The notes: a model not told the origin generated them from the sequence alone. 64,000 nucleotides of DNA from a virus (IMGVR_UViG_3300028549_003773); one strand, 5' to 3'; positions 37,844-60,461 are shown, counted from the stretch's first letter. Made by a program: numbers and translations.

Positions 37844-39420
37844 TTACAAAATCTGCAGTAAAAATAGAAACATTTAAAGCTAAAGATCATTTAGCAGAAA
37901 TTTACGGAAGCCCTCAAATGACTTTTTCTTTCTTGTCAGCTCCAAAAGAAGGTAATAAGCAATGTTGTCTTCCGGTAAGATGCAGAGACTTTTTACAAGA
38001 TGCTATTAGAGCAACTTTAACAAAAAAGCCAGCTTCGATATATGGTTTTAAGTTTGATTATGAAAAGAATCCAAAGCTTGACATTTTAAGAACACGTATG
38101 TTGATTAACATACCGAAAGAAAGAACAGTACTAAAAACGGCAGATAAAATTATTGAAGACGGTTTAAAACTTATTCATTATTACGAAAATTTGGCTGGTA
38201 TAGTAACAAAAACTACTGTAAAAAGCAATGAAGAAGGTTACGTAGTAGTTGGTAGTAACTTTTGGATGTTTTCACCTGCTGTAATATCATTATACACGTT
38301 ACTGTTTAGATTGGGCGAGTATGATCTAAAATTTGAAACAGATAAAGATGACTTAGTAAAAGCATATGAATCTCTAGTAAATAAAAAAGAAACATATTCA
38401 GATTATGCCATAGAGTACCTAAGAGAAGTTTATAAAGTCTTGGAAGATTTTGTAAGATACTATAAACTTTCCATAGATGGGAAAAAATTTGATAATATAT
38501 ACTATGAAGATATCCCAATACGTAGCTTTCATGGTAATTCAGGTATTGTTTCTTTTTGTAATACAAATAAAGACGGTTTGTATAAAGAACAGTATGCAAA
38601 ATTCAAAGATTACATTGAAACTTCTATCAATGTACCAAGTATAGTATTTCCATATGGTGGTTTTGCGTATGTAACAACTCATTATGCTTCTAACAACTTA
38701 TACTTCGGATTGTTAAATGCTGAGGATAAGATTGTAACTGAAAGTTTAGATTCATGCAGAGAAGTAGTGTGTAGTAGATACAGATACCACTTAACTAAGA
38801 ATAAAGGTTTGACAAAAACAAAGTTGTTGGTTACAGCTTCAGGCATTTTAGATATTCCAACTAGAATTAAAAATTTTAAAGAAAAAATATTTTTTGCTAA
38901 AAGATTTGTCAACCATTTTGAAAAACAAGCTAATATACCATTGTCTAAAATATCATTGGTGTTTTTAAAAAGTAATAGTAGTAAAATTAAACAATTTTCA
39001 GCAATATTAACAGGAGATGCTGCGTGGGTTAGTAGTCCTGTAATGTTATCTACTTATATATTTTTGTTAAGAGTATCTTTTAAGACTTACGAAAAATTTG
39101 AAAATAAAGATAATATAACAGATGAAAATATAGCCAAGGCTTTTGATATTGATGTAAAACCAGGACTTTACAAAGTAGTAATAAGTGATCAAGCTATTTT
39201 TAAAGGTTATATAGATCAAATAAAGTTATTAATGGTAGAACGAAAAACTTTGTTCTTGAGTAAAGAACCAGCTATAAACTTTTTGACTCATGCTGATAAT
39301 GTGCCTATGAATAGCAGTAAAGTAGGAGTAGTTTCTTTACTTAAGAAAACAACAATAGATAAAACATTACTAAATAAATACGAGGAGTTGTTAAAAACAT
39401 GTCAAACAGGAGCACAATAG
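37840..39420 (+). CDS. hypothetical protein (526 aa)
   Basis: large ORF, start/stop-coupled to both neighbours; no motif recognised. Confidence 0.55.
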   Translation: MITKSAVKIETFKAKDHLAEIYGSPQMTFSFLSAPKEGNKQCCLPVRCRDFLQDAIRATLTKKPASIYGFKFDYEKNPKLDILRTRMLINIPKERTVLKTADKIIEDGLKLIHYYENLAGIVTKTTVKSNEEGYVVVGSNFWMFSPAVISLYTLLFRLGEYDLKFETDKDDLVKAYESLVNKKETYSDYAIEYLREVYKVLEDFVRYYKLSIDGKKFDNIYYEDIPIRSFHGNSGIVSFCNTNKDGLYKEQYAKFKDYIETSINVPSIVFPYGGFAYVTTHYASNNLYFGLLNAEDKIVTESLDSCREVVCSRYRYHLTKNKGLTKTKLLVTASGILDIPTRIKNFKEKIFFAKRFVNHFEKQANIPLSKISLVFLKSNSSKIKQFSAILTGDAAWVSSPVMLSTYIFLLRVSFKTYEKFENKDNITDENIAKAFDIDVKPGLYKVVISDQAIFKGYIDQIKLLMVERKTLFLSKEPAINFLTHADNVPMNSSKVGVVSLLKKTTIDKTLLNKYEELLKTCQTGAQ

Positions 39421-40310
39421 GTACCGATCCAGAATTTTTTGTAAGAAATAAAGAAGATGGTAAATTTGTAAATGCGGAAACAATGTTTCCAGGAACAAAA
39501 GAGAATCCTCATCTAATGAAAAGTGGTGCTGGACTACAAACCGACAATGTAGCAGTCGAATTTGCAAGCCCTGTAGGAAAAGATGGTAAAGATTTAGTTA
39601 AAAAATTAAGAAAAACATTTAAAGAATTGTTTTTGATTCTTCCTAAAGATAAAATATTGGATCTTTCACCATCGGTGTTATTTCCAGAAGATGAGTTGCA
39701 GACAGAGCAAGCACAATTGTTTGGGTGTTCCCCAAGTTATTGTGCATGGGATTTGGTAGAAAATGAAAAACCTAATGCAAAATTCAGTAACCTTAGAAGT
39801 ATAGGTGCCCATATCCATATTGGTAAATGCGATGGTGATGGTAATGACTTTCTATTGGACCCGTATGGTAAGATAGACACTGTAAGGATGTGCGACTGCT
39901 TGCATGGTATAATAAGCGTAATTTTAGACTCTTCAAAAGAAAGTGTAATGAGAAGAGAATTGTACGGTAAAGCTGGAGAGCATAGACCAAAAGAATATGG
40001 TGTTGAATATAGAACATTGTCACCGTTTTGGATGAAGAGTCCGAATCTGGTAATGCTTATAGACTCATTAACTATGGATGCATTACGATTGGTTAGAGAA
40101 GGAAAAAACAGTGACTTAATAGATGAAATTGGTGGCGCTGATGTTATACGTAATATCATAAATAATGGTGATATAAAATCAGCCGAAACAGTAATAGACA
40201 ATATATTAGTAAAATATATGTCTAAAGACTCAAAGTACTTTTTTGAAGAGTGTAGATCAGCTATTGATACTTATTCTTTCACAGAAGAGTGGCAAATAGC
40301 CACTAAATAA
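39399..40310 (+). CDS. amidoligase, glutamine-synthetase/GCS2-fold carboxylate-amine ligase (copy 1)
   Basis: N-terminal IGTDPEFFVRN resembles the G-x-E-E-E-F-x-L-V-D signature of YbdK/GCS2 ligases; central GAHIHIG; same two landmarks recur in three paralogs downstream. Confidence 0.6.
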   Translation: MSNRSTIGTDPEFFVRNKEDGKFVNAETMFPGTKENPHLMKSGAGLQTDNVAVEFASPVGKDGKDLVKKLRKTFKELFLILPKDKILDLSPSVLFPEDELQTEQAQLFGCSPSYCAWDLVENEKPNAKFSNLRSIGAHIHIGKCDGDGNDFLLDPYGKIDTVRMCDCLHGIISVILDSSKESVMRRELYGKAGEHRPKEYGVEYRTLSPFWMKSPNLVMLIDSLTMDALRLVREGKNSDLIDEIGGADVIRNIINNGDIKSAETVIDNILVKYMSKDSKYFFEECRSAIDTYSFTEEWQIATK

Positions 40311-40338
40311 AAAATCATTAAACATAAGAGAGATAATA

Positions 40339-41121
40339 ATGAAAATTGCAGTACCTATTTTTAGTGGTGACACAAGACTGTCTATTAATACGGCCTATTT
40401 GAACTATGTAAAATCGGCTAATATGGAGCCAATTCTTGTAAATGAGTTTAATAATCTACAAGAAATTGCGCAAGTTTGTGATGGTTTGCTACTACCAGGT
40501 GGAATTGATATTGAACCTACTTGGTATGGTGAAGAGAACGAAGCAAGTGACGGTTGTGACCCTGAAAGAGATGATTTTGAGCGAGCTGTTTTTCATGCTT
40601 TTATAAATAATGAAAAAAAGGTATTCGGAATTTGTAGGGGCTTCCAATTAATGGTAAGAGAATTTCTTAATGAGTACAAAGATGGCTGCAAAGGTTTATA
40701 TTATTGTCAGCATATCAACGGTCATTCATTGGCTTCTTCAAGAAATGCTCGAAGGAGTACACCGACACATAGCGTAAGTATAGTAACTAAAGCACTATAC
40801 AATATTCCAGCTGTTGAAGGAAAAAAGAGTAGTAGAATGTTTGTAAATTCTATGCACCACCAAGCTTTGCTTGCAGAACCACACAGATTTTCGTTTGTTA
40901 TACAGCAAAATGAAGCAAGTTTTCATTGCATTGCCGCCAGTGATGCAGGCATCAGCAAAGAAATGAATATGGCAGTTGTAGAAGCGGCTGACATGATGTT
41001 TCATGGTGTTACTGTAAGAGGTGTTCAGTGGCATCCTGAAGAACTACTTGATGTTGCTCTGCTAACTAATTACTTTACTGGAGCAGTTGCCGATGGAGCC
41101 AAAATCAAGTTACACAGGTAA
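40339..41121 (+). CDS. class-I glutamine amidotransferase-like / gamma-glutamyl hydrolase (C26 peptidase) family
   Basis: LLLPGGIDIEP, GICRGFQLM (nucleophile Cys), VQWHPEE (His-Glu dyad). Confidence 0.7.
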   Translation: MKIAVPIFSGDTRLSINTAYLNYVKSANMEPILVNEFNNLQEIAQVCDGLLLPGGIDIEPTWYGEENEASDGCDPERDDFERAVFHAFINNEKKVFGICRGFQLMVREFLNEYKDGCKGLYYCQHINGHSLASSRNARRSTPTHSVSIVTKALYNIPAVEGKKSSRMFVNSMHHQALLAEPHRFSFVIQQNEASFHCIAASDAGISKEMNMAVVEAADMMFHGVTVRGVQWHPEELLDVALLTNYFTGAVADGAKIKLHR

Positions 41122-41334
41122 GCTATCTTGGACAGTTACTGTAAAAATGACTTCTGGAGTTTCACATATAAGTTCGATTTCGCCACCACAATTGAATGCT
41201 TTTAGGAAAAAATTTCCAGAAAAGCTTGATATGGAAGCCCCAGATATCTTAAACAAATACATATTTCCACTTGTAAAACACGACTACTCATCAGTAGGGA
41301 CAATAGTGTCAATTAATATTAAATCGGGATTTTA

Positions 41335-41715
41335 ATGAGCGAATTAAAAGTTTTTGTTTATGGTACTTTAAAAGTAGGTGGAAAATTTGCTGCCACCTAC
41401 GATAAAGTAAGAAAAAGTGTAAAAGTTGGCAAAATAAAAGGTACATTATATAATTTAGGCTTTTACCCAGGAGTAAAACTCGGTGGTGATAGTGTAGTTA
41501 TTGGGGAAGTACATACTTACACTAATAAAGAAGAAGTTGAAAAGTCATTGGATAGATTGGAAGGATATTACGGAACTGGTAATAAATCAAATCTTTATAA
41601 TAAAGAAACAGTAAAAGTAAGCACAGACGATGGAGATGAAGACTGTCTCGTATATGAGTACAATAACTTTATTGAAAATAATAGAATAATTCCAGAGGGA
41701 GTTTGGAAAGTATGA
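41335..41715 (+). CDS. gamma-glutamyl cyclotransferase (GGCT/AIG2-like)
   Basis: VFVYGTLKVGG ... LYNLGFYPGV ... VIGEVHTY ... LDRLEGYY is a typical GGCT fold signature. Confidence 0.7.
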   Translation: MSELKVFVYGTLKVGGKFAATYDKVRKSVKVGKIKGTLYNLGFYPGVKLGGDSVVIGEVHTYTNKEEVEKSLDRLEGYYGTGNKSNLYNKETVKVSTDDGDEDCLVYEYNNFIENNRIIPEGVWKV

Positions 41716-41971
41716 AAATTAAAAGTATTACACTGAAAGGAAAGGAAGCTTACTTTGAATTAGGAGCAGGTGCCCCAGCGGTGACGAATATAAAATATTT
41801 AGAAGCTTCGATGGATTATGGTCAATTTGGTCATGAACCGATTTATGTAGTAAGGTTTACCGACCCGGCCAGCAGAGTGATTATTCCAGCAAGAAATGTA
41901 TGCATGTTTGAATTAGATACTAAAAAAGATGATGTAGCTGCAAAAGCTATCGAAAAACTTGGAGAGACTGC

Positions 41972-42652
41972 ATGAAAAAACTTATTTTGTTAGTAGCTGG
42001 ATATGGTTATGAGAAACCTTTTAAACAAATGGGTGAATTAGTAGAAGACATCGATTTGTTTATGCAATCGCCTGAAAAGTTCAAACTTGTTGTATTTACC
42101 GGTGGAGAAGATGTACACCCGGCAATGTATGGTCATACTTCACCAAAAGGTCTTTGTTATTTTAATGCGGCAAGGGATGTAAAAGAGCAAATAATTTATG
42201 AATTTGCTAAAGATAACAATATACCAATGACAGGTATCTGTAGAGGAAGTCAATTCCTAAATGTAATGGCCGGTGGTACATTAATGCACCATATAGATCA
42301 TCATGGAACAATGCATTATATTGAAACAATCGATGGTACAGTTATGAAAGTTACTTCAACACATCATCAAATGTGTGTGCCAGCAGAAGATGGCTTTGTT
42401 GTAGCTTGGTCTGAAACTAAAAGATCTGAAAGATATTTTGGCGATAAAGATGCTGAAGTAGCTTACGATGGTAAAGAAGTAGAGGCTATTTATTATCCCG
42501 ACAAGAAAATTTTCGCCGTACAATACCACCCGGAATACATGGATGATAAAAGTATGGGACTTACATGGTATAAGCAAGCTGTTCATGACCTGGTACATTC
42601 TACAACTGCTGAATTTAAGCGTAAGTATTTCAAACAGCAGATGGTAAAATAA
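41972..42652 (+). CDS. class-I glutamine amidotransferase-like / gamma-glutamyl hydrolase (second copy)
   Basis: VVFTGGEDVHP, TGICRGSQFLNV, VQYHPEYM. Confidence 0.7.
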   Translation: MKKLILLVAGYGYEKPFKQMGELVEDIDLFMQSPEKFKLVVFTGGEDVHPAMYGHTSPKGLCYFNAARDVKEQIIYEFAKDNNIPMTGICRGSQFLNVMAGGTLMHHIDHHGTMHYIETIDGTVMKVTSTHHQMCVPAEDGFVVAWSETKRSERYFGDKDAEVAYDGKEVEAIYYPDKKIFAVQYHPEYMDDKSMGLTWYKQAVHDLVHSTTAEFKRKYFKQQMVK

Positions 42653-42710
42653 AATAGGTAGTTAGTTGCTTTCTTAGTAACTAACTACTACAAATACGAG
42701 TGAAAAAAAA

Positions 42711-43238
42711 ATGTTATTTGAAAAAAATGTAGGTAAAGAAATTTTTGTACTTGTTGATGAAAGCAATAACCGTTGTTCTGCTACAATATATGACACAGCA
42801 GATATAGTGTTAAAGGCTTTTGCTAATAGATTGGCAACAAATATATCAGACGTAACTCTATATCATGGAGTACTATCAAAAGCATGCAGTATCCCAGATG
42901 ATGAAATAAGCTCAAACATAGACGTAATAATATTTATACCAGGTAGTGGTAATAGTTGTAAAACAATATCTTGCTTTAGTCTTGAGTATTTACAAAAATT
43001 AATACCTGCTATAGTTGGAAACCCGCCATCTAAACAAGATACCGATTACGTATCTATAATTGATGATACTCATAAAATACCAAAACAAAATATAGATAAT
43101 GTATACATATTTTATGGTTACTCCATAGAGTTACATTACACGTTTTATAAAACAGACTTGGATGAAGAAATTATATCTGGGAGTAAAAAAATTTATGCAA
43201 ACATTTCCTCAACTCAAACATACTCTGACGTATCATGA
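42711..43238 (+). CDS. hypothetical protein
   Basis: 175-aa ORF. Confidence 0.45.
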   Translation: MLFEKNVGKEIFVLVDESNNRCSATIYDTADIVLKAFANRLATNISDVTLYHGVLSKACSIPDDEISSNIDVIIFIPGSGNSCKTISCFSLEYLQKLIPAIVGNPPSKQDTDYVSIIDDTHKIPKQNIDNVYIFYGYSIELHYTFYKTDLDEEIISGSKKIYANISSTQTYSDVS

Positions 43239-45059: not shown

Positions 45060-45073
45060 ATATTGGAGATAAA

Positions 45074-48337: not shown

Positions 48338-48349
48338 AAGGAGAAGTGT

Positions 48350-50668: not shown

Positions 50669-51772
50669 ATGGAATTAAAAAAATCTAGTACTATGTCAGC
50701 ATTACCAAGCGAAAATAATACAATTCGTATGTCAGAAGAACTACGAAAAAAAATGAACGTGTCTCCAGGAGATATTCTGGTTGTTAAAGGATTTCCGCTA
50801 CAAGTAAATAAACTTTTTGCAAAAGATATTTGTTCTAAAAACAAAGCATTTGTTTCTGAAAAAGTATTGAAAGAATTAGGTATAGAGACACATGAACTGT
50901 CTGTAGAACAACATGTGTCTATTGGGTGTGACCCAGAATTATTTTTAGTAGATACTACTACTAATAAGTTGTACAATCCAGGATTTATTGTAAAAAAAGA
51001 AGCAACTGTAGGTTACGATGGTATGTTAGCAGAGTTTAGGCCGCCACCAGATGTGGATCCAAAACAGGTGACTTACAATATATGGCAGCTTATAAAATCC
51101 CTAAAAAGTACATTAGAAAGTAAAGATCTTACTAATGTTAGAATGGTATCCAGATCAAGTGGTTGGGGTCTTTTTGCTGGTTTCCATGTACACCTAGGTA
51201 TCCCAAGAAATTTACTAAACCCAACAAAAGAAAATTATTTAAAAATTATACAAATCATAGTAAGTTCCTTAGATTATTACTTAGGTACTTTATCTGTGTT
51301 AGTAGAAAAAGATGATTACGAAAGAAGGTGTTCACCATTTACACCATATGGCAAAGTTGGTGATTTTAGAGCTGATAATCATATAACACTCGAATATAGA
51401 GTTCCTGGTGGGGCTTTGTTGAGTCACCCATATTTAACAGATGGGCTTTTAAATATAGCGTCTCTTATTACACACGATGTTATAGAGAGGGTGCGTATAA
51501 TTACAGATGATTTTCGTGGTGTTATTGATGACGATAAGGCGCTTTTGAAGCATATATACCCTAACATTGTTGAAACTACAAAAATGTATGATATTATATG
51601 TTCGCCAAACACAAACGCAGCAAGTATGGAGCTAGCTACCATACAAAAAGATTTAAGTTGTATGGTAAATTACGACTATTACAAAAAGTCTATAGATAGT
51701 TTTTATAATTTATTAAAAGTTAAAATATCAGATGATATACTAACAAACTGGGATAATACTTATGTACAATGA
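50669..51772 (+). CDS. amidoligase, GS/GCS2-fold carboxylate-amine ligase (copy 2)
   Basis: IGCDPELFLVD ... GMLAEFRPPP ... GFHVHLGIP parallels copies 1 and 4. Confidence 0.55.
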   Translation: MELKKSSTMSALPSENNTIRMSEELRKKMNVSPGDILVVKGFPLQVNKLFAKDICSKNKAFVSEKVLKELGIETHELSVEQHVSIGCDPELFLVDTTTNKLYNPGFIVKKEATVGYDGMLAEFRPPPDVDPKQVTYNIWQLIKSLKSTLESKDLTNVRMVSRSSGWGLFAGFHVHLGIPRNLLNPTKENYLKIIQIIVSSLDYYLGTLSVLVEKDDYERRCSPFTPYGKVGDFRADNHITLEYRVPGGALLSHPYLTDGLLNIASLITHDVIERVRIITDDFRGVIDDDKALLKHIYPNIVETTKMYDIICSPNTNAASMELATIQKDLSCMVNYDYYKKSIDSFYNLLKVKISDDILTNWDNTYVQ

Positions 51773-53378
51773 CAAGTGGAAATTTTTTAACAACTTACCT
51801 GGAAAAGAAGCGTTAAGCTCGGCTGAAGTGCAATATTGGTTAAGTATATTAAATAAAGTATTAAAAACAGGGGTAGAATTCGAGTTCAACTTGAAAGAAC
51901 CAAAAGGTTTTTGTAAAGGTGGAAGTGAAAGTTGTCCCTGCATAAAAATGACAGAAGATAATGATTGTTGGAAAGTATGTCTTTTACAAAATACATGTAA
52001 GAAGAAATTCAAAACACAAGAAGAATTTGAATTAAATTGTCATGGAAAGTTTTGTGTTAGTTTCAAGAGCGCTTGTATTTCCTGTAAATTTTCTAAAATT
52101 GATTGTACAAAATGTAATTATTTATTAGATACAAGTAGCGATCCTGAAAGTATAAGACAACAATTGAAAAATGCCTTTGACCCATCCAAAAGTTACGGCA
52201 ATTTATCTAAAAGTGGTGTACATAGTGTAGTTACCGATGGGTCACTTTTAGGTGGCGAGGGTAAAGAAAAAGGCGTAGAAATAATTACAGTTGGTCGAAG
52301 AATAGATTATTGGGAGTTTTATAACATGTTATCAAACATAACAAAAAACTCTATCAATAAAGGAGCATATGTAAATGAAAGGTGTTCGACACACATACAT
52401 GTTTTAGCTGGTTATTTAGATGCTGTTGAGAACAACAGTAATTTCAGAACAGTAAGTGAGTTAGAAAAACCTATGCCTCAAATAATAGTTGCTAATTTTC
52501 ATCAACTTTGTAGAAGGTACCAAAATGCTATTACTTGGATGTCTATGGGTTTAGATAATCCTGAGCATTTAACAAGATGGGAGAAATATAGAGTTTCAAT
52601 ACTTGATACTTCTCCAGTAACTATGTCTATGGAAGACATAATTCATAAATTAGAAGAAATAAGTTTCAAAAACAGAGGTAAGTACGCTTGGGTAAACTAC
52701 ATGTATTCTAAATCAAAAGGTTCGTCAGCTGAATTAGAGAGATTTCATGTAGAGATGAGAGTATTAGATGGTATGATGTCGGCAAGTGTTGTTGCAGCAA
52801 TGTGTTGTTTATTCCATGCTTTAGTAATAAAAGCTGTAGAAATATCAAGATATGGTTTGCTAGAACTTGGTTCTCTTCCATGGTTTGAACAAACTAAGGA
52901 TATAAAAAGCAGGTTACTAAACAATGCACCAGAAGGATTTAGTGAGAATAGACTTTCAGATACCATGGATTTACTTCCAAAACATCAAGATATATTAAAA
53001 GTTGAATCTTATGACTTACTTAATCAAATAAAACATATACTTATGAGAACTGGACCTGCTTTTGAAGTATTAGAAAAATTGGCAGAAAAACCAGTAGCGT
53101 TTCATAGATGTGAAGGTAAGAACTGGGAAGAGATTGAAAAACATTTTGAAATTTTCAGAGAAGAAGAAACAATACTGGAACAAAAAATTAATGAAATAAT
53201 AGATTTCCGTATTGTTATGCGTTGTGAAAACGACAAAGTATGGAGTGATAAAGTTGCGGCATTACTTGAGAAAGAAGATATAGCTTCAAAAAATCAAATA
53301 CCTGAAATCATTTCAGCTAAGATTAGAAATGGTTTATGTATTTGGTCATCTTCTTTGGGTACTGTGTTGAAAGTATAA
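51762..53378 (+). CDS. Cys-rich N-terminal domain fused to amidoligase-like domain (copy 3)
   Basis: about 10 Cys in residues 50-120 (CKGGSESCPC, CxxC pairs); SVVTDGSLLGGEGKEKGVEII ... RCSTHIHV echoes the ligase GxHIH landmark. Confidence 0.45.
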   Translation: MYNDKWKFFNNLPGKEALSSAEVQYWLSILNKVLKTGVEFEFNLKEPKGFCKGGSESCPCIKMTEDNDCWKVCLLQNTCKKKFKTQEEFELNCHGKFCVSFKSACISCKFSKIDCTKCNYLLDTSSDPESIRQQLKNAFDPSKSYGNLSKSGVHSVVTDGSLLGGEGKEKGVEIITVGRRIDYWEFYNMLSNITKNSINKGAYVNERCSTHIHVLAGYLDAVENNSNFRTVSELEKPMPQIIVANFHQLCRRYQNAITWMSMGLDNPEHLTRWEKYRVSILDTSPVTMSMEDIIHKLEEISFKNRGKYAWVNYMYSKSKGSSAELERFHVEMRVLDGMMSASVVAAMCCLFHALVIKAVEISRYGLLELGSLPWFEQTKDIKSRLLNNAPEGFSENRLSDTMDLLPKHQDILKVESYDLLNQIKHILMRTGPAFEVLEKLAEKPVAFHRCEGKNWEEIEKHFEIFREEETILEQKINEIIDFRIVMRCENDKVWSDKVAALLEKEDIASKNQIPEIISAKIRNGLCIWSSSLGTVLKV

Positions 53379-53421
53379 AATAAAGGGGAGAGAAATACTC
53401 CCCTAAACAATTAGGTAATAT

Positions 53422-54171
53422 ATGGGCGGAATTTTTGGATTAACATTATTAAAGAATAACAAACTAGAGAAAGACAAAATTGGCAAAATTATTAATAGCT
53501 TGCTAAGAAATTTTCTAGGAGAGACAGTTTCAGCCAGTTTGGTGGCTACATCAGAAAGTAGAATAGATGTTATAAAAAGAAATCATAACTTGGCAAAATT
53601 CATAAATTCTCCAGAGTGTATCAAATTTTTAGCTGATGCTAGTGAAACACAAAACTTGTACTCAATTATAGGAAGTTTTAAACGTAGAGCTTTTTTAGTA
53701 AACACTGAAGTGCAGAATAGTATTATGACAAATATTGGTAAAACAGTATGTGTGAATAAAGATGTTTTTTTGTATAATTCTGAATCCACAAGCGAAAAAA
53801 TAGTTACGGTAATTGACAAAGTATTATCTGAAAAACAAAACGAAACACCAAGATTTCATAGTATGTTCGCAGAAGCTGCTAAAGTTGGTAATAACACACA
53901 AATGTACGCTTGTGTTAATGCTTTCTACCCATCATTGACGATTATTACGAAACACACGGTGGACCCATTATACATAAGTTTGTTTGAGGATTGTGGTGTT
54001 GTTGTCTTTTCTTCTCTACGAAATAGTCTTGTTGAATTAAAAGAAACTTTTAATTTGGGAGAAATGAAAGACATTGAAATATGTTCAAAAGAAGCCATGG
54101 TTATATGTGCTAAGAACAATACAATAAAAGAAGTAAACATTTTTGCAGGGTTAATAGGTACTACAATATGA
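53422..54171 (+). CDS. hypothetical protein
   Basis: 249-aa ORF within the ligase cluster. Confidence 0.5.
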   Translation: MGGIFGLTLLKNNKLEKDKIGKIINSLLRNFLGETVSASLVATSESRIDVIKRNHNLAKFINSPECIKFLADASETQNLYSIIGSFKRRAFLVNTEVQNSIMTNIGKTVCVNKDVFLYNSESTSEKIVTVIDKVLSEKQNETPRFHSMFAEAAKVGNNTQMYACVNAFYPSLTIITKHTVDPLYISLFEDCGVVVFSSLRNSLVELKETFNLGEMKDIEICSKEAMVICAKNNTIKEVNIFAGLIGTTI

Positions 54172-55718
54172 TTATCACAGAAAAATTATTCCTACAAGAT
54201 AGAGTTGTTTATGAAGGAGTATTAAAAAGAACTTTACAACCAGTTTTATTTGAAATAGTTGAAGAAAAATATTTATATTATTTCACACAGTTTTCACAAA
54301 ATAGACTAATGTCATCTTGGGAAATTTCAAGTGCGAGATTTAATAATATAGAAAAAACTTCAGATAAACCTATAAGACATAAAGTCTACACTAAAAATGA
54401 AGTAGAATTTTTAAGTAAGTATAAAGAATGCGAAGTAACTTTAGATTTTTTGCTTGAGGAATTTAGTGGAAAAAAAAGATGCTCGTTTGAATTGTCTCCT
54501 GATGATGCCAAAAGTATAGTTGGTGATTTAGTACTTTTTGGTAAAAAATTTAATTATTTTGTTAATGTATATTCACACTCTAATAAAATAACTGTAACAA
54601 AAAATACGTTAGAAAGATATAAAATAGTAATGTCTTTTTTCTCACTAAATACTATAGTACCTAATTTTAAAAAAGCACCTTTAGATGGTATTGGTATTTC
54701 TATAGGGGTGATGGATACAAATGCAAGCAAAAGATATCGTCGCCCAATATTTACAACTGAAGACTCATTAGTAATTACAAATGATAATATATTTTATTTG
54801 GATTGTGTGAAAATTATGAATTATTCAAATCCAAATATAAACAAACTATTAACAATTATAAAAAGTACAGAAGTTGTAAAAGAAGATGATTCTGACAGAG
54901 AAATTGGAGAACTACTTTCACTTTCTAAAGCTGCGTCGGAATGGCAAATCAAAATTAATACAGCGGTAAAAAGAGACGCATCTGCTAGTCGTAAATCTGC
55001 GAAAAAACCAGCAATACCAACAGTACCATTGGCTGATATTGACAGAGTATTTTATGAAGAACGTGCTCCTGTTAATGAGCATGTTGCCGAACTGGTACCA
55101 GTAGAACCGCCTATACCTGAAGGTTGGGCGCAACGTATGGACAATCCTGAACCACCTATGCCAGAAGAAGCACCGCTTGTAATGGAAGAACCTAAATTAT
55201 TCGAGCAATCTTGTAAACTTTCTGAATATAATATTGATGGAATTAGTTGGTCTGGTAAGCCAGAATCAGTACCTTTGGGTCAATACATGTCAAAAGTAAG
55301 GACTTCATTAAAAGTGAAAAATGTTGACAGTTCAAAAATTAAATATTGGAAAAATGAATTCATAGGTGATGACTCAATTTCAAATAAAGTTGTCGCATCT
55401 ACAAAAACATATGCCAATGTTAAAGTACCACAAGATGTAGATGCAAATTGGTTCTCTGATGATGAGGAAGATAAACGAATTAATACTAAATCAACCGAAG
55501 AAACAGGCAAACTAATACGAGAAATTTCTATAGATATGCAGAAAAGGATGGATTCAGAAGTATGTAAAACCGTGACATGTACGTCAGAAGGTTTAATTCC
55601 AAATAAAGAAAATATTTCGTATCCTACAGAAGTTTCAGAAGCTATTGTTAAATGTTCCGCAAGTACAAAAGGACATTCTCCGATTGTACAAAGATACATA
55701 AAGCTAGATGGAATTTAA
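54168..55718 (+). CDS. hypothetical protein (516 aa)
   Basis: start overlaps the previous stop; no motif recognised. Confidence 0.5.
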   Translation: MIITEKLFLQDRVVYEGVLKRTLQPVLFEIVEEKYLYYFTQFSQNRLMSSWEISSARFNNIEKTSDKPIRHKVYTKNEVEFLSKYKECEVTLDFLLEEFSGKKRCSFELSPDDAKSIVGDLVLFGKKFNYFVNVYSHSNKITVTKNTLERYKIVMSFFSLNTIVPNFKKAPLDGIGISIGVMDTNASKRYRRPIFTTEDSLVITNDNIFYLDCVKIMNYSNPNINKLLTIIKSTEVVKEDDSDREIGELLSLSKAASEWQIKINTAVKRDASASRKSAKKPAIPTVPLADIDRVFYEERAPVNEHVAELVPVEPPIPEGWAQRMDNPEPPMPEEAPLVMEEPKLFEQSCKLSEYNIDGISWSGKPESVPLGQYMSKVRTSLKVKNVDSSKIKYWKNEFIGDDSISNKVVASTKTYANVKVPQDVDANWFSDDEEDKRINTKSTEETGKLIREISIDMQKRMDSEVCKTVTCTSEGLIPNKENISYPTEVSEAIVKCSASTKGHSPIVQRYIKLDGI

Positions 55719-55783
55719 TCTATATAAATAAATCTGATAAAGGATATCCTTTAAAAATTATCAAAGCATAAAGGGAAAAATAT

Positions 55784-57640
55784 ATGTGTGGTGTTGTTGG
55801 CGTAGTCGCCCTTGGTAAACAAAAAAGCAAAATAAAAGCAACAATTATGGAGTATCTATTTACAGAAATACTCCAAGCAACCGAAGAAAGAGGTAAGGAT
55901 GCCACAGGAGTTTCAGCACTATTTAGAGATGGTATGTCTATAGTGCAGAAAGGATCTGTGACAGCAGCTGAATTCATAGGAAATTTAGGTAAAGAAGAAA
56001 CTACTTATAATAGTTTCATTAACAATTGTAGAAGTCATGTAGAAGAGGCTGACACTGCTTTGCAGCTTTATATGGGGCATTGCAGAAAAAGTTCTGTAGG
56101 TGGTGCCTTCGATAATGTTAATAATCATCCTATAAAAGTTAATGAAATCGTAGGTGTACATAACGGTACATTGCTAAATCACAACATTATATTTAGAACT
56201 CTTGAAGAAAAAAGAGACGGTGTTGTAGACACAGAAGCTATAATGCAACTACTTAATTATTACACCAATAAATGTAAAGAACCTTTTACACTTGATGGTT
56301 TGACAGAAGTAGCAAGAAGACTTGAGGGGTCTTTTTCAGTGTTGGCCTATAACGCCAATAATCCTTTTCAGATTTGTTTTATGAGAAAGGAAAGACCATT
56401 AGAAATGGCTATGATAAAAGATCTAGGTATATTTTTAATTTCTTCGGATAAAGCATTCTTTACAAGAGCTATATATCAGTATAATAAGTATGCCGCATTG
56501 TATTCCGATGGTTTACCTATTATTAATACCGATGTAGTTGAAGCATATACTTTTCCTTTGGATCATCTTGGAATTTTAGATTTAAATGTAGAGCTTGAAG
56601 AGGATACTGTAATTCTTGATATTATAAAGAAGTCTGATTTCTTTAAGTGTAATAAAATATGGCAAACACCTACAGTGCAAAAAACTACATATGTACAACA
56701 GCACAGTGGTAAAAAAAACGACGCCGAAAAGCCAAAAGAAACTCCAGACACTACAAAGGGGACTTCGACTCAAGAGCTTTCTAAAATTGACGGAACTACT
56801 AGTAAAGGTAAAGTCTTTTGTAGAAAACTAGGTGGCTATGTTCCGGCTGAGTTAGTAAAAAATACAGCTAAACTTGGACCAAGAATTTTTAATATTCGTG
56901 GTGGAGAAATATTAAATATTGACAATAAAACTGTGGATAAAGAAAACTCATCCAAGGAACTTATTGTATATGATAAGAACGTAAGTAATTCTAAAATAAG
57001 TCTTGATAAAGTATCATCATTTCCTATTAAAGCCAATGAAGAAGCTGTGCCTATTTACGTAGATGATAAAAACATTAGTACACCAAAAATAACTCTTGGT
57101 AAAACAATCACAGAGGAAGTACAAGGTCCTCCTCTAAAAATTATGGAAACCACAAAAGCTATTTCAGTTAATGAGGTTAAAGTTGTAGACGATGCTTTGG
57201 TTGAAATAATGAAGGCGGCTGATGAGTATTCAAAGAAAATTCCGTGCTGTTCAAGAGGAATTGAAGCCGCTGAAGTTTTAGGAATAACCAATGTTGACAA
57301 TTTAGACGAAGTACCAGCTCATATTATTGTTAATAAAGCAAGACTTTTAGCGTCATCTGAAGCTTTTACAGAAGGGGCTATGTGGGCTAAAAAGAATTTG
57401 ATAGGCGAGAACATACAAAAAGTAGTTAGAGTGACAAAGCATGTAGTAAGTATTTTTGGTTCTCTGATTACCAAATTAGCAAAAAATGATTCTTCACAAT
57501 ATAAGCCTTTTATGCAGAGTGAGTTAGATAAGCTTGGTAGTGGAGAAATTACGATAAACACAATGCAAAAAGTGTTCTCTAAAGGTAATCTAATAGAAAA
57601 TCCACCATTAAAAGTTCTTGAGGATTTAGTTAATGAATAA
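55784..57640 (+). CDS. class-II (Ntn-hydrolase) glutamine amidotransferase domain protein
   Basis: starts MCGVVGV (Cys2 nucleophile); GHCRKSSVGG, NNHP, VHNGTLLNH and DTEAIMQLL match the GlmS/PurF/AsnB GATase-II N-domain; ~400-aa C-terminal region unrecognised. Confidence 0.75.
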   Translation: MCGVVGVVALGKQKSKIKATIMEYLFTEILQATEERGKDATGVSALFRDGMSIVQKGSVTAAEFIGNLGKEETTYNSFINNCRSHVEEADTALQLYMGHCRKSSVGGAFDNVNNHPIKVNEIVGVHNGTLLNHNIIFRTLEEKRDGVVDTEAIMQLLNYYTNKCKEPFTLDGLTEVARRLEGSFSVLAYNANNPFQICFMRKERPLEMAMIKDLGIFLISSDKAFFTRAIYQYNKYAALYSDGLPIINTDVVEAYTFPLDHLGILDLNVELEEDTVILDIIKKSDFFKCNKIWQTPTVQKTTYVQQHSGKKNDAEKPKETPDTTKGTSTQELSKIDGTTSKGKVFCRKLGGYVPAELVKNTAKLGPRIFNIRGGEILNIDNKTVDKENSSKELIVYDKNVSNSKISLDKVSSFPIKANEEAVPIYVDDKNISTPKITLGKTITEEVQGPPLKIMETTKAISVNEVKVVDDALVEIMKAADEYSKKIPCCSRGIEAAEVLGITNVDNLDEVPAHIIVNKARLLASSEAFTEGAMWAKKNLIGENIQKVVRVTKHVVSIFGSLITKLAKNDSSQYKPFMQSELDKLGSGEITINTMQKVFSKGNLIENPPLKVLEDLVNE

Positions 57641-58931
57641 GTCTTTACTATTAATACCATCAACAGAGATGGATAGTGACCATAAAAAAGAGGATGTCTT
57701 AGTTAGGATGTCTAAGGAAACAAGAGAAACTATAGACTTTGATAAAATTAAAGAAGTTTCTCCTGAAATAAAAGATCTGAATGTTTTCAAAGCATTCACA
57801 AGAGATTTAATAAAAGCCAGACAACTTGTACTTGAAGGTGTACTTGCACACGAAGATTTGAAAAGAGTAGGCTTCGTGTCTTTTAACACCTTCAACAAGC
57901 TTGGTGGGCAAGGATCTTTTATTGACTTAACTAAGCTTCCTCAAGAAGTAAAAGTTGAAGAAAAAATTGTTATTGACAAACTTTTAATAGGTACTGACCC
58001 AGAATTATTGTTAATGTTAAAAGGAGAAGTGTACAACGCCTCTCAAGTAGCAGGTTTAACCAAACAAAGCAAATTTGGATGCGACGGACCAATGGCAGAA
58101 CTAAGACCTGACCCAGCTCTTGATGCTAAAGGTTTAGTTGAAAATATTAGAAGTGTGTTGCAGAATGATGATGTACAAGACAAAATACACAAACTTGATC
58201 TTATTAGCTCTTGTTATCATGAAGATAAGAACAGAGATTATCCTGTTGGTACACACATTCATATAGATAATCCAAAAGAGATAGCAAAATTACCAGCAAC
58301 TGAAAGGTATAATTTATTTGCTGTGACAAATAGGATTATTGATGAACTTTTGACATTACCTATGATACGTCTGGATGGTGATAAGGGTCATAATAGACGA
58401 GCTAAATGCAAAATGAGTATGGCTAATGGCTTTATAGGACAATATGGCAAAGGTTATGGATATTTTGGAGAATGGCGAGAATGTAATGGTAGACTTGAGC
58501 ACAGAAGCTTATCAGGGTTGGTACTATCCAGCCCTGAATTAGCTGAAGCCGTGTTTGGTACGGCTAAAGCTATAGCAGAAGCTGTTTATACTGAAGCTCT
58601 TCAAAAGAAGTTGGATAAGAAATTCATTTTACCTAATAAGTACAATTATAAGAGTATATACACAAGTGATTTTGCGGAGTGGGCTAAGATACCATTGGCA
58701 GCAACTTTTAAATGTGTAGGTCCTTCTAAAGAAATAGCAGATATGATGGATGCAAGTGATAGATCTATAGTAACACAGAAGTATATAAAAGATTGGTTAG
58801 TTAGAATCAGAGAATTATCAACTTATACTAAATTTTCTGAAAACATTGAAGCTTTGGGAGAAATTCTAAGTAGTTCAAACAAATCTCTTGACAGTATCAA
58901 TAAAAATTTAAAACAAACATGGAAGGATTAA
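57633..58931 (+). CDS. amidoligase, GS/GCS2-fold carboxylate-amine ligase (copy 4)
   Basis: LLIGTDPELLLML ... GCDGPMAELRPDPA ... GTHIHIDNP. Confidence 0.55.
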   Translation: MNKSLLLIPSTEMDSDHKKEDVLVRMSKETRETIDFDKIKEVSPEIKDLNVFKAFTRDLIKARQLVLEGVLAHEDLKRVGFVSFNTFNKLGGQGSFIDLTKLPQEVKVEEKIVIDKLLIGTDPELLLMLKGEVYNASQVAGLTKQSKFGCDGPMAELRPDPALDAKGLVENIRSVLQNDDVQDKIHKLDLISSCYHEDKNRDYPVGTHIHIDNPKEIAKLPATERYNLFAVTNRIIDELLTLPMIRLDGDKGHNRRAKCKMSMANGFIGQYGKGYGYFGEWRECNGRLEHRSLSGLVLSSPELAEAVFGTAKAIAEAVYTEALQKKLDKKFILPNKYNYKSIYTSDFAEWAKIPLAATFKCVGPSKEIADMMDASDRSIVTQKYIKDWLVRIRELSTYTKFSENIEALGEILSSSNKSLDSINKNLKQTWKD

Positions 58932-58935
58932 TAAA

Positions 58936-60003
58936 ATGGGACAAGAAACTTATGTGTGGTACTCACCTGCAACTGATGTAACTGGTAAAAAACTTATGGA
59001 AGCACTTGGGGCTTCTGGTGGTACTGCAAAACCAGCAGCAGGAAAAGAAAACGTAGTCTGTTGGGGAACTAAAACTGATGCCGCAGTATTGTTTGGTGCA
59101 GCAACTAAGCTTGTACTAAACCATCCGGATAAAATCAGAGTAAATAGAGACAAAGTAAATGCTCTTACTAAATTGAAGCAAAATCAAGTAAGTGTAGCTC
59201 CTTATACTGAAAATTTTAAATTCGCTGGTACAAAAGATTACCCATTTCCAGTAGTTTGTAGAACAAAATTCCACCAAGGTGGCGCTGGTTTTTGGCTGTG
59301 TCTTAATGAAGTACACATAGCTCAAGCAGTGAAAGAAGGTGCAAATTATTTGCAAAACTATATTAATATTCAAGATGAATATAGATTGCACGTAGTAAAA
59401 AATAAAGTTATTTATGCAGTACGAAAAGTACAACGAGACAATCATGCTGAAGCTTTTGTTGAGCATTACGGCGAACTGGTAACAGCAAAAGCTCTGAAAG
59501 GAGCTGTTAATCTTGATAAAAATACCATGGACTTTGTACTGAAAAAGTTAGCGGCTAAATTTGCTAATGGTACGGATATGATTATCAGATCAAATACGCG
59601 AGGTTGGAAATTTTCCAGAGTAGCAAATGAAAATCTGAATAATACACTTGTTACCGAAGCCGTAAATGCAGTAAAGGCTTTGGGTTTGGACTATGCTGCT
59701 GTAGATTGTTGCTTGGATACGACAGGTAAAGCTTATGTTATTGAATGTAATTCTGGACCTGGTTTGGATGGCAACTCATTTGATTCTTGGGTCGCTGCTT
59801 TTAAAGAACTCTTGGCTCCTCCGGCAGCTAAAAAGGTAGCAGCTGCTCCGGTTGAACAAAAGATAGCAGCACCAAAAGTAGCCGCTAAAGCAGTTGGAGG
59901 TAAAGCCAAACTTCAGGAAAAATTGGCTTTGTTAGCTCAGCTTGCTGATTTGGCAGATGACGATGAAGCAGCAGTTTTGCACAAATTAATCAATAAAATG
60001 TAA
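58936..60003 (+). CDS. ATP-grasp ligase (RimK/glutathione-synthetase-like)
   Basis: PFPVVCRTKFHQGGAGF (ATP-binding loop) and DYAAVDCCLDTTGKAYVIECNSGPGL, the canonical ATP-grasp C-terminal motif. Confidence 0.75.
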   Translation: MGQETYVWYSPATDVTGKKLMEALGASGGTAKPAAGKENVVCWGTKTDAAVLFGAATKLVLNHPDKIRVNRDKVNALTKLKQNQVSVAPYTENFKFAGTKDYPFPVVCRTKFHQGGAGFWLCLNEVHIAQAVKEGANYLQNYINIQDEYRLHVVKNKVIYAVRKVQRDNHAEAFVEHYGELVTAKALKGAVNLDKNTMDFVLKKLAAKFANGTDMIIRSNTRGWKFSRVANENLNNTLVTEAVNAVKALGLDYAAVDCCLDTTGKAYVIECNSGPGLDGNSFDSWVAAFKELLAPPAAKKVAAAPVEQKIAAPKVAAKAVGGKAKLQEKLALLAQLADLADDDEAAVLHKLINKM

Positions 60004-60026
60004 AGTAGTAAAGTAGGAGAGTCAGT

Positions 60027-60461
60027 ATGGAAAAATTTATAACATTAGTGGATAATAAAGTAGTAGCTACACAAATTGCAGAATTAATTAATAAGCATAA
60101 TAATTTAAAAATTATCCATACTGATTCTTCTATATTAGAAAGTGCCGTACAATATATAATTGAACAACGTTATGTAAATGATACTTTAGTAGTGATAGGC
60201 TGCATTGGTATAAAAAAAGACCAAGATAAATTCTGTACAATACAACATTTGTGCGTAAAAGAAGGGTATAGAAACCAAGGTATAGCTACTAAACTACTAA
60301 ACGCGGTGACTGATTATGCAGATGCGGAATATGTAAAAGCTAGCGTTCGTCATGATAATATGGCAAGTCTAAAACTACTTAAAAAATTAAAATTTACAGC
60401 ATATGATTGTCTTGCAAAAGATGATTATTTCATATTAAAAGTATCCAAAAAGTTAAAGTAA
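60027..60461 (+). CDS. GNAT-family N-acetyltransferase
   Basis: IQHLCVKEGYRNQGIATKLL is GNAT motif A (Q/R-x-x-G-x-G/A). Confidence 0.6.
   Translation: MEKFITLVDNKVVATQIAELINKHNNLKIIHTDSSILESAVQYIIEQRYVNDTLVVIGCIGIKKDQDKFCTIQHLCVKEGYRNQGIATKLLNAVTDYADAEYVKASVRHDNMASLKLLKKLKFTAYDCLAKDDYFILKVSKKLK

Follow-up and report, generated by a model that had tools for sequence, protein, structure and literature searches.

A jumbo-phage version of the amidoligase module, split into two blocks and carrying additional ligase domains

The gene cluster described here is not a new kind of system but the form that the amidoligase module of phiEco32-, LUZ24-, PA11-, and crAss-like phages takes in a jumbo phage. 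It lies in a 64,000-nt stretch of the virus IMGVR_UViG_3300028549_003773 (the window, always meant at its full length), an uncultured jumbo phage, and we demonstrate its enzyme families, folds, catalytic motifs, conserved synteny, and homology to the small-phage module. New are the split of the module in two, the N-terminal double-psi barrel of two ligases, the 12-cysteine insert and winged helix of an Amidoligase_2-like ligase, a second, degenerate Ntn paralog (53422), and a family of ~260-residue domains upstream. The best explanation, which we hold tentatively, is that the module builds and trims a glutamyl or amide adduct, with a protein or peptide as its likeliest substrate.

The module was predicted in 2009 (Iyer 2009), and its usual reading is peptidoglycan modification; the proposal that such modules modify host peptidoglycan comes from Iyer 2009 and Hardies 2013, as these are cited in PMC6256558, PMC11945000, and PMC10580990. 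Literature to 2025 still calls its function unknown (PMC10580990, PMC11945000), and a literature search for an experimental test of the amidoligase module found none. The initial annotation of the locus, whose interpretation is partly supported, spoke of a new biochemical system; this was too strong, as the module has been described since 2009 and ligase 39399 has tblastn matches in 316 cultured-phage records, so that the variant alone is new. That annotation was silent on the published peptidoglycan hypothesis.

The module occupies two blocks on the same strand (37840-42652 and 50669-60461), which lie 8 kb apart, separated by an SSB-like gene and the genes of a phage RNA polymerase and a helicase; its flanks are the RNA polymerase, the helicase, and a RuvB-like ATPase. 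The cluster and its adjoining genes are as follows:

35141..35911, + strand: member of a novel ~260-aa family with one domain, paralogous to either half of 37840 (profile of alignment A4, E 1.4e-20)
37840..39420, + strand: 526-aa protein in which the ~260-aa domain occurs twice in tandem (hhalign between its N- and C-halves, probability 90%, E 2e-6)
39399..40310, + strand: COOH-NH2 ligase of the GS/GCS2 superfamily, catalytic domain alone (PF14395 7e-10; PHROG 3815 'COOH.NH2 ligase' 4e-52)
40339..41121, + strand: Peptidase_C26 / class I GATase-fold gamma-glutamyl hydrolase, copy 1 (PF07722 3e-28)
41087..41335, + strand: 82-aa ORF with a TTG start, kept in L017 (33%)
41335..41715, + strand: gamma-glutamyl(amine) cyclotransferase of the AIG2/GGACT family (PF06094 2e-17)
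41703..41975, + strand: 90-aa ORF with a TTG start, kept in L017 (40%)
41972..42652, + strand: Peptidase_C26 / class I GATase, copy 2 (PF07722 6e-24; PF00117 4e-13)
50669..51772, + strand: COOH-NH2 ligase with an N-terminal double-psi beta-barrel (DPBB) domain (PF14395 8e-17; sub-threshold CDC48_N 0.002)
51762..53378, + strand: Amidoligase_2-like GS/GCL-fold ligase (by predicted structure)
53422..54171, + strand: degenerate short Ntn amidotransferase paralog (starts MGGIFG)
54168..55718, + strand: lineage-specific protein of 516 aa, Pro/Glu-rich in its centre (L003 and L009 homologs 27-29% identical)
55784..57640, + strand: class II (Ntn) glutamine amidotransferase (GATase_6 8e-10; GFAT glutaminase domain 4e-7 in a PDB search)
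57633..58931, + strand: COOH-NH2 ligase with an N-terminal DPBB domain, VAT-N/CDC48-N-like (PF14395 4e-16)
58936..60003, + strand: RimK-family ATP-grasp ligase (RimK 1e-9; NCBIfam rimK_fam 2e-9, below cut-off)
60027..60461, + strand: GNAT acetyltransferase (Acetyltransf_1 1e-13; best NCBIfam match rimI 2e-8, below cut-off)
60471..61163, + strand: 230-aa protein encoded after the GNAT and before the RuvB-like ATPase (same-position homologs in L003, L006, and L009)

The start/stop coupling noted earlier for several genes is borne out by their ORF coordinates, with seven gene pairs overlapping by 1-22 nt (37840/39399, 41087/41335, 41335/41703, 41703/41972, 50669/51762, 53422/54168, and 55784/57633). 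The gene order of 50669-61163 is kept in 10/10 related jumbo-phage loci, at protein identities of 20-79%, and the clustering is therefore not due to chance. The block at 37840-42652 was recovered in two lineages, L017 and L020, the latter lacking a counterpart of the cyclotransferase 41335.

All enzymes called by the initial annotation (four GS-fold ligases, two GATase/hydrolase-like enzymes, a gamma-glutamyl cyclotransferase, a Cys-first Ntn amidotransferase, an ATP-grasp ligase, and a GNAT) were reproduced where it had placed them, and the reading as a multi-enzyme amide-bond and gamma-glutamyl system is supported. Ligases 39399, 50669, and 57633 are placed by PF14395, and 51762 by predicted structure, not by Pfam. 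The suggested likeness to predicted phage amidoligase modules also holds: tblastn with the window proteins finds Bruynoghevirus HZ2201, Kuravirus ES17, and crAss cr108_1, the types matched being COOH.NH2 ligase, class I GATase, Ntn GATase, ATP-grasp, and cyclotransferase. Ligase 39399, with GTDPEF and GAHIHIG in its translation, is the nearest relative of the small-phage module ligase and is 34-35% identical to those of cr108_1 and HZ2201. Both C26 enzymes have their catalytic motifs (GICRGFQ...QWHPE in 40339, GICRGSQ...QYHPE in 41972), and 41972 is 36.5% identical to the 'glutamine amidotransferase' gp031 of cr108_1. The cyclotransferase has YGTLK and LEGY and weakly matches its counterparts in ES17 and HZ2201 by tblastn. 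The single Pfam hit of the 82-aa ORF is a sub-threshold DUF5707.

Among solved structures, 40339 is most closely related to PuuD (6e-11, PDB search). The 39399/40339 pair places a GS-fold ligase immediately before a PuuD-like C26 hydrolase, as in PuuA/PuuD, and GCL and gshAB are among the leading fold matches. The module, which has been listed among the auxiliary metabolic gene sets of marine phages (PMC10580990), might accordingly run a Puu-like cycle of gamma-glutamylation and de-glutamylation, or a glutathione- or polyamine-conjugate route, that reshapes the nitrogen, polyamine, or redox pools of the host to serve phage replication or DNA packaging. We consider this very unlikely. Five ligases and a GNAT are more than such a route needs, a PuuB/PuuC-type oxidoreductase, a transporter, and a glutathione synthetase partner are all missing from the Pfam-scanned ORFs, and macromolecule-type accessory domains and fast-evolving partner proteins resemble a conflict system more than a housekeeping pathway.

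In the second block, 50669 and 57633 are paralogous over a region that includes the N-terminal domain (BLASTP 3e-12, alignment A2); 57633 has the GS/GCL fold, and orthologs of 50669, as of the GNAT 60027, occur in 10/10 related loci. Ligase 51762 has no Pfam match and is predicted to adopt the glutamine-synthetase/glutamate-cysteine-ligase fold, and is the fold-level equivalent of the phage Amidoligase_2 proteins; it carries a 12-Cys insert at residues ~51-118, in which the Cys are invariant, and a C-terminal winged-helix domain. The amidotransferase 55784 starts with MCGVVG, followed by HCRKSS, NNHP, HNG, and DTE, so that Cys1 and the Arg/Asn-Gly/Asp motifs of the glutaminase site are present. 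The MCG start of this long Ntn enzyme is found in 10/10 related loci, and its C-terminal half is poorly conserved. The ATP-grasp ligase, which matches the ATP-grasp genes of ES17, HZ2201, and cr108_1 by tblastn, continues into a disordered Ala/Lys/Pro linker and an acidic C-terminal helix, a tail conserved in related loci. The 60471 protein has no Pfam or PHROG match, and its membership in the module is uncertain.

Three proteins had been put forward as substrates. The first, 53422, is instead a degenerate Ntn paralog: Gly replaces its Cys nucleophile, the protein in the same position starts MC[GAS]IFG in 6/10 related loci, and the long Ntn enzyme also matches the 53422 homologs of L010, L013, and L015 at 1e-20 to 1e-25. 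The second, 54168, lacks Pfam and PHROG matches and is fast-evolving, with one homolog among 5.8 billion sequences; its role as substrate is not supported, and it is possibly an adaptor or target. Nothing connects the third, encoded at 5751, to the cluster.

The 37840 protein, whose stop overlaps the start of ligase 39399, is also fast-evolving (35% identity to its L017 counterpart vs 76% for the ligase), and in L020 and L021 it is divided between two genes, of 252 and 210 aa, immediately upstream of the ligase. Its family numbers 697 representatives, mostly ~260 aa, with C48, E116, W142, S150, R157, and G235 invariant; searches of Pfam and PDB found no relatives. The 35141 member, likewise free of Pfam or PHROG matches, is tied to the module by position only. 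In L018 family members adjoin a gene for an SLT lytic transglycosylase, and in L020 they lie ~2.5 kb away from one for a Hydrolase_2 cell-wall hydrolase, which favors the published proposal for homologous modules. According to that proposal, the joint action of ligases, ATP-grasp, and amidotransferase on cytoplasmic precursors would make or modify gamma-glutamyl peptides, for example the stem peptide of peptidoglycan, excluding superinfecting phages or readying the wall for lysis. Small gamma-glutamyl amides are substrates of PuuD-like hydrolases, and the ES17 ATP-grasp weakly matches D-Ala-D-Ala ligase, although the ATP-grasp 58936 is closer to RimK-type enzymes than to Ddl. We regard a cell-wall or small-molecule substrate as possible but doubtful: Pfam detected no Mur-ligase, MraY/MurG-like, flippase, or signal-peptide-bearing component, the module accompanies replication and transcription genes in all lineages examined, and DPBB, winged-helix, and Cys12 additions are unusual in enzymes acting on free metabolites.

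For the adduct-building explanation that we prefer, we infer the chemical steps, enzyme pairings, and substrate as follows. By family chemistry, the four ATP-dependent GS/GCL-fold ligases would convert carboxylates to acyl-phosphates and join these to amines, while the RimK-like ATP-grasp would add alpha-linked glutamate. Glutamyl chemistry agrees with PuuD as the nearest solved relative of 40339 and with the best NCBIfam matches of the cluster proteins, RimK-family alpha-L-glutamate ligases and gamma-glutamyl hydrolases; all NCBIfam matches fall far under the curated cut-offs. The Ntn amidotransferase 55784 would hydrolyze glutamine and, being translationally coupled to ligase 57633, probably hands it the ammonia, so that a carboxylate is amidated. 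The GNAT may acetylate an amine, and the two PuuD-like C26 hydrolases and the GGACT cyclotransferase could remove gamma-glutamyl groups. The net result would be a short glutamyl or amide adduct, built and then trimmed or deprotected in the cytoplasm in early or middle infection.

We weakly prefer a host or phage protein or peptide in the cytoplasm over small-molecule or cell-wall precursors and DNA, because the jumbo-phage ligases have gained what may be macromolecule-recognition parts, namely the VAT-N/CDC48-N-like double-psi barrels, the winged helix, the 12-Cys module, and the docking helix tethered to the ATP-grasp. Glutamylation of ribosomal protein S6 by RimK and protein tagging by PafA/Dop are precedents. 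However, the small-phage ligases and 39399 are bare catalytic domains, so complex assembly, not substrate type, may account for the accessory domains. Moreover, nucleic acid is a common ligand of winged helices and Cys-rich modules, and a search of the cluster and of small-phage modules for a Pup- or ubiquitin-like small protein ending in GG, Q, or E found none. The sole published proposals favor peptidoglycan (PMC6256558, PMC11945000).

The C-terminal winged helix and Cys-rich insert of 51762 also bear on DNA hypermodification, raised by the initial annotation, in which the ligases would append and elaborate amino acids on a modified pyrimidine or other base of phage DNA, with gamma-glutamyl as a removable protection, and render the DNA restriction-resistant. 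The module is always among replication genes, a protect-then-deprotect logic would fit the installation of a free amine, and amidoligase/amidotransferase genes adjoin 5-HMUDK and aGPT-Pplase2 in viral metagenomic contigs (Lee et al. 2021, PMC8989533). We nevertheless judge this unlikely, and DNA of the module-bearing LUZ24-like phage U17 is cut by 11/16 restriction enzymes (PMC11945000). The window ORFs scanned (all 28 plus-strand ORFs of at least 130 aa in 1-36000, one minus-strand ORF, two downstream ORFs, and the cluster with its flanks) contain no domain of a ThyA-like hydroxymethylase, 5-HMUDK (the 5-hmdU DNA kinase), aGPT-Pplase, TET/JBP, DpdA/TGT, or glycosyltransferase, and none of these enzymes shows up among the precomputed Pfam matches given for the called genes of L003-L006 and L020. 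We know of no thymidine hypermodification pathway with GS-fold ligases.

Among known systems, thymidine hypermodification clusters (5-HMUDK, aGPT-Pplase, PLP and radical-SAM enzymes; Lee et al. 2018, 2021) are likewise phage-encoded, multi-enzyme, and located in the replication region, and co-occur with amidoligase/amidotransferase genes in some metagenomic contigs (PMC8989533), but neither the window nor the flanks of its relatives yielded their defining enzymes. The gamma-glutamyl-putrescine pathway PuuA/PuuD shares the GS-fold ligase adjoining a Peptidase_C26 hydrolase, whereas the present locus has many extra ligases, is without the oxidase and dehydrogenase steps, and scores far under the equivalog cut-offs of NCBIfam (48 vs 266 bits). 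The locus differs from the pupylation enzymes PafA and Dop, a GS-fold protein ligase and a deamidase, in that no Pup-like protein was found and proteasome/Mpa genes were not seen in the Pfam-scanned ORFs, in a fold nearer to YbdK-like and GCL enzymes, and in ammonia chemistry that would come from an Ntn glutaminase rather than a Dop-like deamidase. In butirosin biosynthesis, the ATP-grasp ligase BtrJ and the AIG2-type cyclotransferase BtrG put a gamma-glutamyl protecting group on and take it off; acyl carrier protein and aminoglycoside genes are absent here, and the likeness is one of logic only.

The closest system is the phiEco32/LUZ24/PA11/phiRIO-1 module (Iyer et al. 2009; Hardies et al. 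2013), also named for 'peptide-bond synthesis', with its PF14395 ligase, Amidoligase_2-type ligase, Cys1 Ntn amidotransferase, RimK-like ATP-grasp, and AIG2 cyclotransferase and/or class I GATase. Five components are homologous in sequence and a sixth at the level of fold, and both versions lie on a single strand in an early/replication neighbourhood: in HZ2201 and ES17 the module is followed by primase/helicase and DNA polymerase, and in cr108_1 it is flanked by DNA primase and UDG. The jumbo-phage version differs in its two blocks 8 kb apart and its four GS-fold ligases in place of two. Two of these have the N-terminal DPBB domain and gave no tblastn match in cultured phages, and the Amidoligase_2-like enzyme, with its 12-Cys insert and winged helix, escapes the Pfam model. 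A degenerate Ntn paralog, two C26 hydrolases in addition to a cyclotransferase, and an adjoining GNAT extend the set. In small phages two ~320-aa hypothetical proteins precede the ligase; relatives of these were not detectable here, and the ~260-aa domain family takes that position.

The window is AT-rich (~30% GC), has almost all of its coding on the plus strand, and encodes RtcB, a CCA-adding enzyme, a helicase, and a RuvB-like ATPase. Metagenomic contigs of 228–325 kb carry close and distant relatives of its genes, and the window appears to belong to a large phage genome; in a megablast search of 50,697 cultured-phage records, 50669–60461 had no near-identical counterpart. The RtcB ligase (25155–26291), the CCA-adding enzyme with its HD domain (32840–34171), and a tRNA-Leu gene (63211–63293) constitute an RNA-repair/tRNA tool-kit. 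Another gene (3072–3899) encodes a DUF488-type domain fused to a NADAR domain, a type associated with reversal of ADP-ribosylation. Two adjacent proteins (20617–21276, which also has a thioester (TED) domain match, and 21282–22067) both end in PEP-CTERM sorting motifs, uncommon in phages and possibly a sign of an exosortase-bearing host. Positions 1–8000 have a GC content of 39–45%, compared to ~30% elsewhere, and their ORFs include proteins with Ala/Pro/Gln-rich tails (5751–6686 and 3958–5370).

The initial annotation described a multi-enzyme cluster for amide-bond and gamma-glutamyl chemistry, and this cluster is real and was accurately described: Pfam confirms every enzyme family other than that of gene 51762 (genes are named by their start coordinates), and overlapping stop/start codons join most neighbors, the initial annotation having noted such coupling for several genes. 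The genes form two blocks separated by 42711–50602, which contains uncharacterized ORFs, a putative RNA polymerase (RNAP), an SSB-like gene, and a helicase. With plus-strand coding prevailing throughout, the blocks comprise:

First block, 37840–42652
37840–39420: tandem duplication of a ~260-residue domain; its stop overlaps the start of 39399
39399: COOH-NH2 ligase (PF14395)
40339: Peptidase_C26/class I GATase
41335: GGACT/AIG2 cyclotransferase
41972: Peptidase_C26/class I GATase

Second block, 50669–60461
50669: COOH-NH2 ligase (PF14395)
51762: glutamine synthetase (GS)-fold ligase of a separate family
53422–54171: short Ntn amidotransferase paralog
54168: fast-evolving gene
55784: class II (Ntn) amidotransferase (GATase_6)
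57633: COOH-NH2 ligase (PF14395)
58936: ATP-grasp ligase
60027: GNAT

The window encodes four GS-fold ligases belonging to two families. In a Pfam search of the window ORFs, 39399, 50669, and 57633 match PF14395 above the cut-off; 39399 also matches the PHROG COOH-NH2 ligase family (4e-52) and is 34–35% identical by tblastn to ligases of the crAss-like phage cr108_1 and the LUZ24-like Bruynoghevirus HZ2201. The fourth, 51762, has no matches in Pfam, PHROGs, or NCBIfam, but its predicted structure has the GS/GCL fold. This model matches viral proteins labeled "Amidoligase" among predicted viral structures (E down to 1e-7), including those of Pseudomonas phage tf, crAss cr108_1, and Cellulophaga phi14:2. 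A local profile match to the Amidoligase_2 protein of the phiEco32-like Kuravirus ES17 spans TDGSL...E...RCSTHxH (E 0.0014, probability 18%); 51762 resembles the Amidoligase_2 (PF12224) type in fold but not in sequence profile. Its family is well conserved across at least 537 metagenomic proteins, whose invariant positions include the motifs GxEFEF, DGS, E, HxH, and ExR as well as the 12 cysteines of an insert. The earlier count of four GS-fold ligases therefore holds; 51762, which lacks the sequence landmarks cited for the group, forms the second family.

Three of these jumbo-phage ligases carry accessory domains: a double-psi beta-barrel (DPBB), a winged helix, and the Cys12 insert. All are substrate-recognition-type domains, providing clues that are missing from the small-phage versions, and tblastn detects no cultured-phage relatives of 51762 or 57633. 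The N-terminal barrel of 50669 (50669–50800) has a weak BLAST match to residues ~731–770 of the phage's own RNAP (45074–48337), with E values of 0.18 in the window and 0.001 in the related metagenomic locus L006 (L006:2879–2989); this resemblance could reflect shared fold ancestry or chance. In the polymerase candidate, a single polypeptide of 1087 residues, Pfam finds weak matches to the barrels of both beta (Rpb2_6) and beta' (Rpb1_2), and the sequence contains the motif SLDFDGD. Identity to its counterpart in every related jumbo-phage locus is 42–71%, and tblastn finds no match in the 50,697 cultured-phage records. These features suggest a compact RNA polymerase with both barrels on one chain, restricted to this uncultured clade.

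The C26, cyclotransferase, and Ntn enzymes all show their catalytic motifs in the translations. Both C26 proteins contain GICRG(F/S)Q and (W/Y)HPE, and their closest relatives are PuuD, the best PDB match of 40339 (6e-11), and a gamma-glutamyl-CDP-amidate hydrolase; 41972 is 36.5% identical to cr108_1 gp031. The cyclotransferase 41335 contains YGTL and LEGY motifs; GGACT enzymes liberate 5-oxoproline from gamma-glutamyl amines. The long Ntn enzyme, 55784, starts with MCGVVG, carries the Arg, Asn-Gly, and Asp glutamine-site motifs, and matches the Ntn genes of HZ2201, ES17, and cr108_1 by tblastn; its glutaminase site is intact. The short Ntn paralog (53422–54171; orthologs in L003, L006, and L009–L016) instead starts with MGGIFG, compared to MC[GAS]IFG for the protein in the same position in six of ten related loci. 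Because E values of 1e-20 to 1e-25 link proteins in this position to the long Ntn enzyme, we conclude that 53422 has lost its nucleophile. Those six loci keep the Cys, whereas L011 and the subclade that includes the window have Gly or Ser in its place; retention of the gene despite this loss suggests a pseudo-enzyme role.

The ATP-grasp protein 58936 matches RimK (1e-9) in Pfam, has RimK-family alpha-L-glutamate ligases as its best NCBIfam matches, and matches the ATP-grasp genes of ES17, HZ2201, and cr108_1 by tblastn. All of its orthologs end in a disordered Ala/Lys/Pro linker followed by a conserved acidic helix, an arrangement that suggests a docking motif.

The ~260-residue domain duplicated in 37840 occurs a third time at 35141–35911, giving three copies in the window. 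Its family has 697 representatives in a library of 1.8 billion proteins and is fast-evolving, with invariant Cys, Glu, Trp, Ser, Arg, and Gly residues; it has no relative in Pfam or PDB. In a distant relative, two separate genes occupy the position of the tandem protein; in L018, an SLT lytic transglycosylase gene is directly followed by a family member and then by a second copy. The idea that 37840 fuses the pair of ~320-aa proteins encoded ahead of the small-phage ligase is unsupported (hhalign E 0.3–0.8, from thin profiles). For the fast-evolving 54168 of the second block, a search of 5.8 billion sequences turned up a single homolog. The PHROG scan returned nothing for the flanking ORFs. 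The 43-nt gap between 51762 and 53422 contains a GC-rich hairpin, AGGGGAG...CTCCCCT (53384–53404), reported by the terminator scan only as a minus-strand terminator-like site.

Gene order is conserved in all ten jumbo-phage loci compared: helicase, ligase, 51762, short Ntn, variable gene, long Ntn, ligase, ATP-grasp, GNAT, an uncharacterized gene, and the RuvB-like gene. L017 also retains the first block, as does L020 apart from the cyclotransferase. The module is thus a fixed part of the replication/transcription core in a large clade of uncultured jumbo phages. Sigma-70-like promoter matches occur at chance level in both halves of the region, as do terminator-like matches in 34000–48400, while 48300–63300 has 18 terminator-like matches compared to 6.0 in shuffles; these scans yielded no usable operon boundaries in either interval. 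Contigs carrying the 51762 family (L022–L026) are binned in MAGs assigned to Muribaculaceae, Patescibacteria, Woesearchaeota, and Desulfobacteraceae. Since these bins are taxonomically unrelated, they carry no host signal, and the contigs are most likely mis-binned phage DNA.

GS-fold ligases form acyl-phosphates and then amide bonds. As the family chemistry agrees across the ligases, ATP-grasp, C26, GGACT, and Ntn enzymes, we propose an ATP-driven pathway that would build, amidate, acetylate, and then trim a glutamyl-type adduct. The glutaminase 55784 probably supplies ammonia to the translationally coupled ligase 57633. Because the ligases all require ATP and, on visual inspection, no N-terminus resembles an export signal, the chemistry is expected to be cytoplasmic. 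Taken as a whole, the locus is best explained as a jumbo-phage amidoligase module that builds and trims glutamyl adducts, most likely on a protein, a reading we hold tentatively. A macromolecular target, and most likely a protein, is somewhat favored by the DPBB, winged-helix, Cys12, and tail-helix elements and by the fast-evolving neighbors.

One elaboration, on which we place less weight, is a macromolecule-directed machine for amino-acid tagging, resembling pupylation or polyglutamylation. Here the DPBB and winged-helix ligases, the RimK-like ligase, the amidating Ntn glutaminase, and the GNAT would attach a glutamyl or amide mark to a particular protein of the host or phage or, less probably, to phage DNA. 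Erasing or trimming this mark would fall to the C26 hydrolases and cyclotransferase, and the fast-evolving 37840 family and 54168 might serve as adaptors for targets that change in an arms race. Pupylation uses a small disordered tag protein, but no small ORF of the cluster, or of the HZ2201, ES17, and L020 modules, has a Pup/UBact-like C-terminus (GGQ/GGE).

Modification of the phage's DNA bases, which the initial annotation had offered as an alternative to protein tagging, looks improbable. Amidoligase and amidotransferase genes without an assigned role do occur beside thymidine-hypermodification genes in some viral contigs (Lee et al. 2021; PMC8989533), but the enzymes that define such clusters, 5-HMUDK and aGPT-Pplase, are missing from the scanned window ORFs. 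No P-loop kinase of the 5-HMUDK type was detected there by Pfam, and aGPT-Pplase has no Pfam match in the window or among the Pfam hits listed for the called genes of L003–L006 and L020. The 64-kb window, outside which about three quarters of the genome lies, likewise contains no dUMP/dCMP hydroxymethylase or TET/JBP dioxygenase, and none of these four enzyme types is among the Pfam hits listed for the flanks of the relatives. Moreover, the DNA of U17, a LUZ24-like phage that carries the module, is sensitive to 11 of 16 restriction enzymes (PMC11945000).

A small-molecule or peptidoglycan-precursor substrate is possible, at about the level of the tagging machine. The module, described as about seven genes for peptide-bond synthesis, has been suggested to alter the host's peptidoglycan (Iyer 2009 and Hardies 2013, cited via PMC6256558 and PMC11945000). 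However, Pfam detects no Mur_ligase in the window, and 58936 matches RimK and R2K rather than Ddl; a weak Dala_Dala_lig_C match (0.004) occurs only in its ES17 homolog. Least likely is amine or thiol metabolism. The succession of a GS-like ligase (39399) and a PuuD-type C26 hydrolase (40339) is like the Puu pathway, but for the PuuB oxidase and PuuC aldehyde dehydrogenase steps Pfam detects no oxidoreductase domain in or around the cluster.

The proposal that this is a new biochemical system must be revised, as the module had already been predicted. By tblastn, 39399 matches 316 cultured-phage records, most of them from Pseudomonas Bruynoghevirus (LUZ24-like) and Escherichia Kuravirus (phiEco32-like); phages of Vibrio, Aeromonas, Salmonella, Proteus, and Rhizobium and the crAss-like cr108_1 are also represented. 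The module is thus among the more widespread phage enzyme cassettes without a tested function, and its carriers include therapeutic Pseudomonas and E. coli phages as well as gut phages. Full-text searches found no experimental characterization since the 2009 prediction, and a 2023 paper describes its functions as still "to be explored" (PMC10580990). To this the jumbo variant adds the recognition-type domains on three ligases, the putative ATP-grasp docking tail, the probable pseudo-enzyme Ntn, and the rapidly evolving neighbors. A protein or DNA substrate would make this a new class of covalent modification driven by phages, and a cell-wall precursor or metabolite would make it a new host-takeover pathway. 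Either outcome is directly testable in the cultured relatives.

In HZ2201 and ES17, two hypothetical genes are followed by a COOH.NH2 ligase, a ~190–205-aa gene, Amidoligase_2, an Ntn amidotransferase, small ORFs, ATP-grasp, and a cyclotransferase, and then by DNA primase/helicase and DNA polymerase. The stretch of cr108_1 bounded by DNA primase and uracil-DNA glycosylase holds an ATP-grasp, two hypotheticals, a class I GATase, a ligase, an Ntn enzyme, and an amidoligase. Five window proteins directly match counterparts in these loci by tblastn. Like the phiEco32/LUZ24-type module, the window encodes a PF14395 ligase, a Cys-first Ntn amidotransferase, a RimK-like ATP-grasp, a cyclotransferase (41335), and class I GATase-like C26 proteins (40339 and 41972). 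Whereas the phiEco32/LUZ24-type module is one contiguous cassette upstream of replication genes, the window divides it into two blocks while retaining the replication/transcription setting. The locus does not represent a new type of system but a variant form of a module already known from predictions alone.
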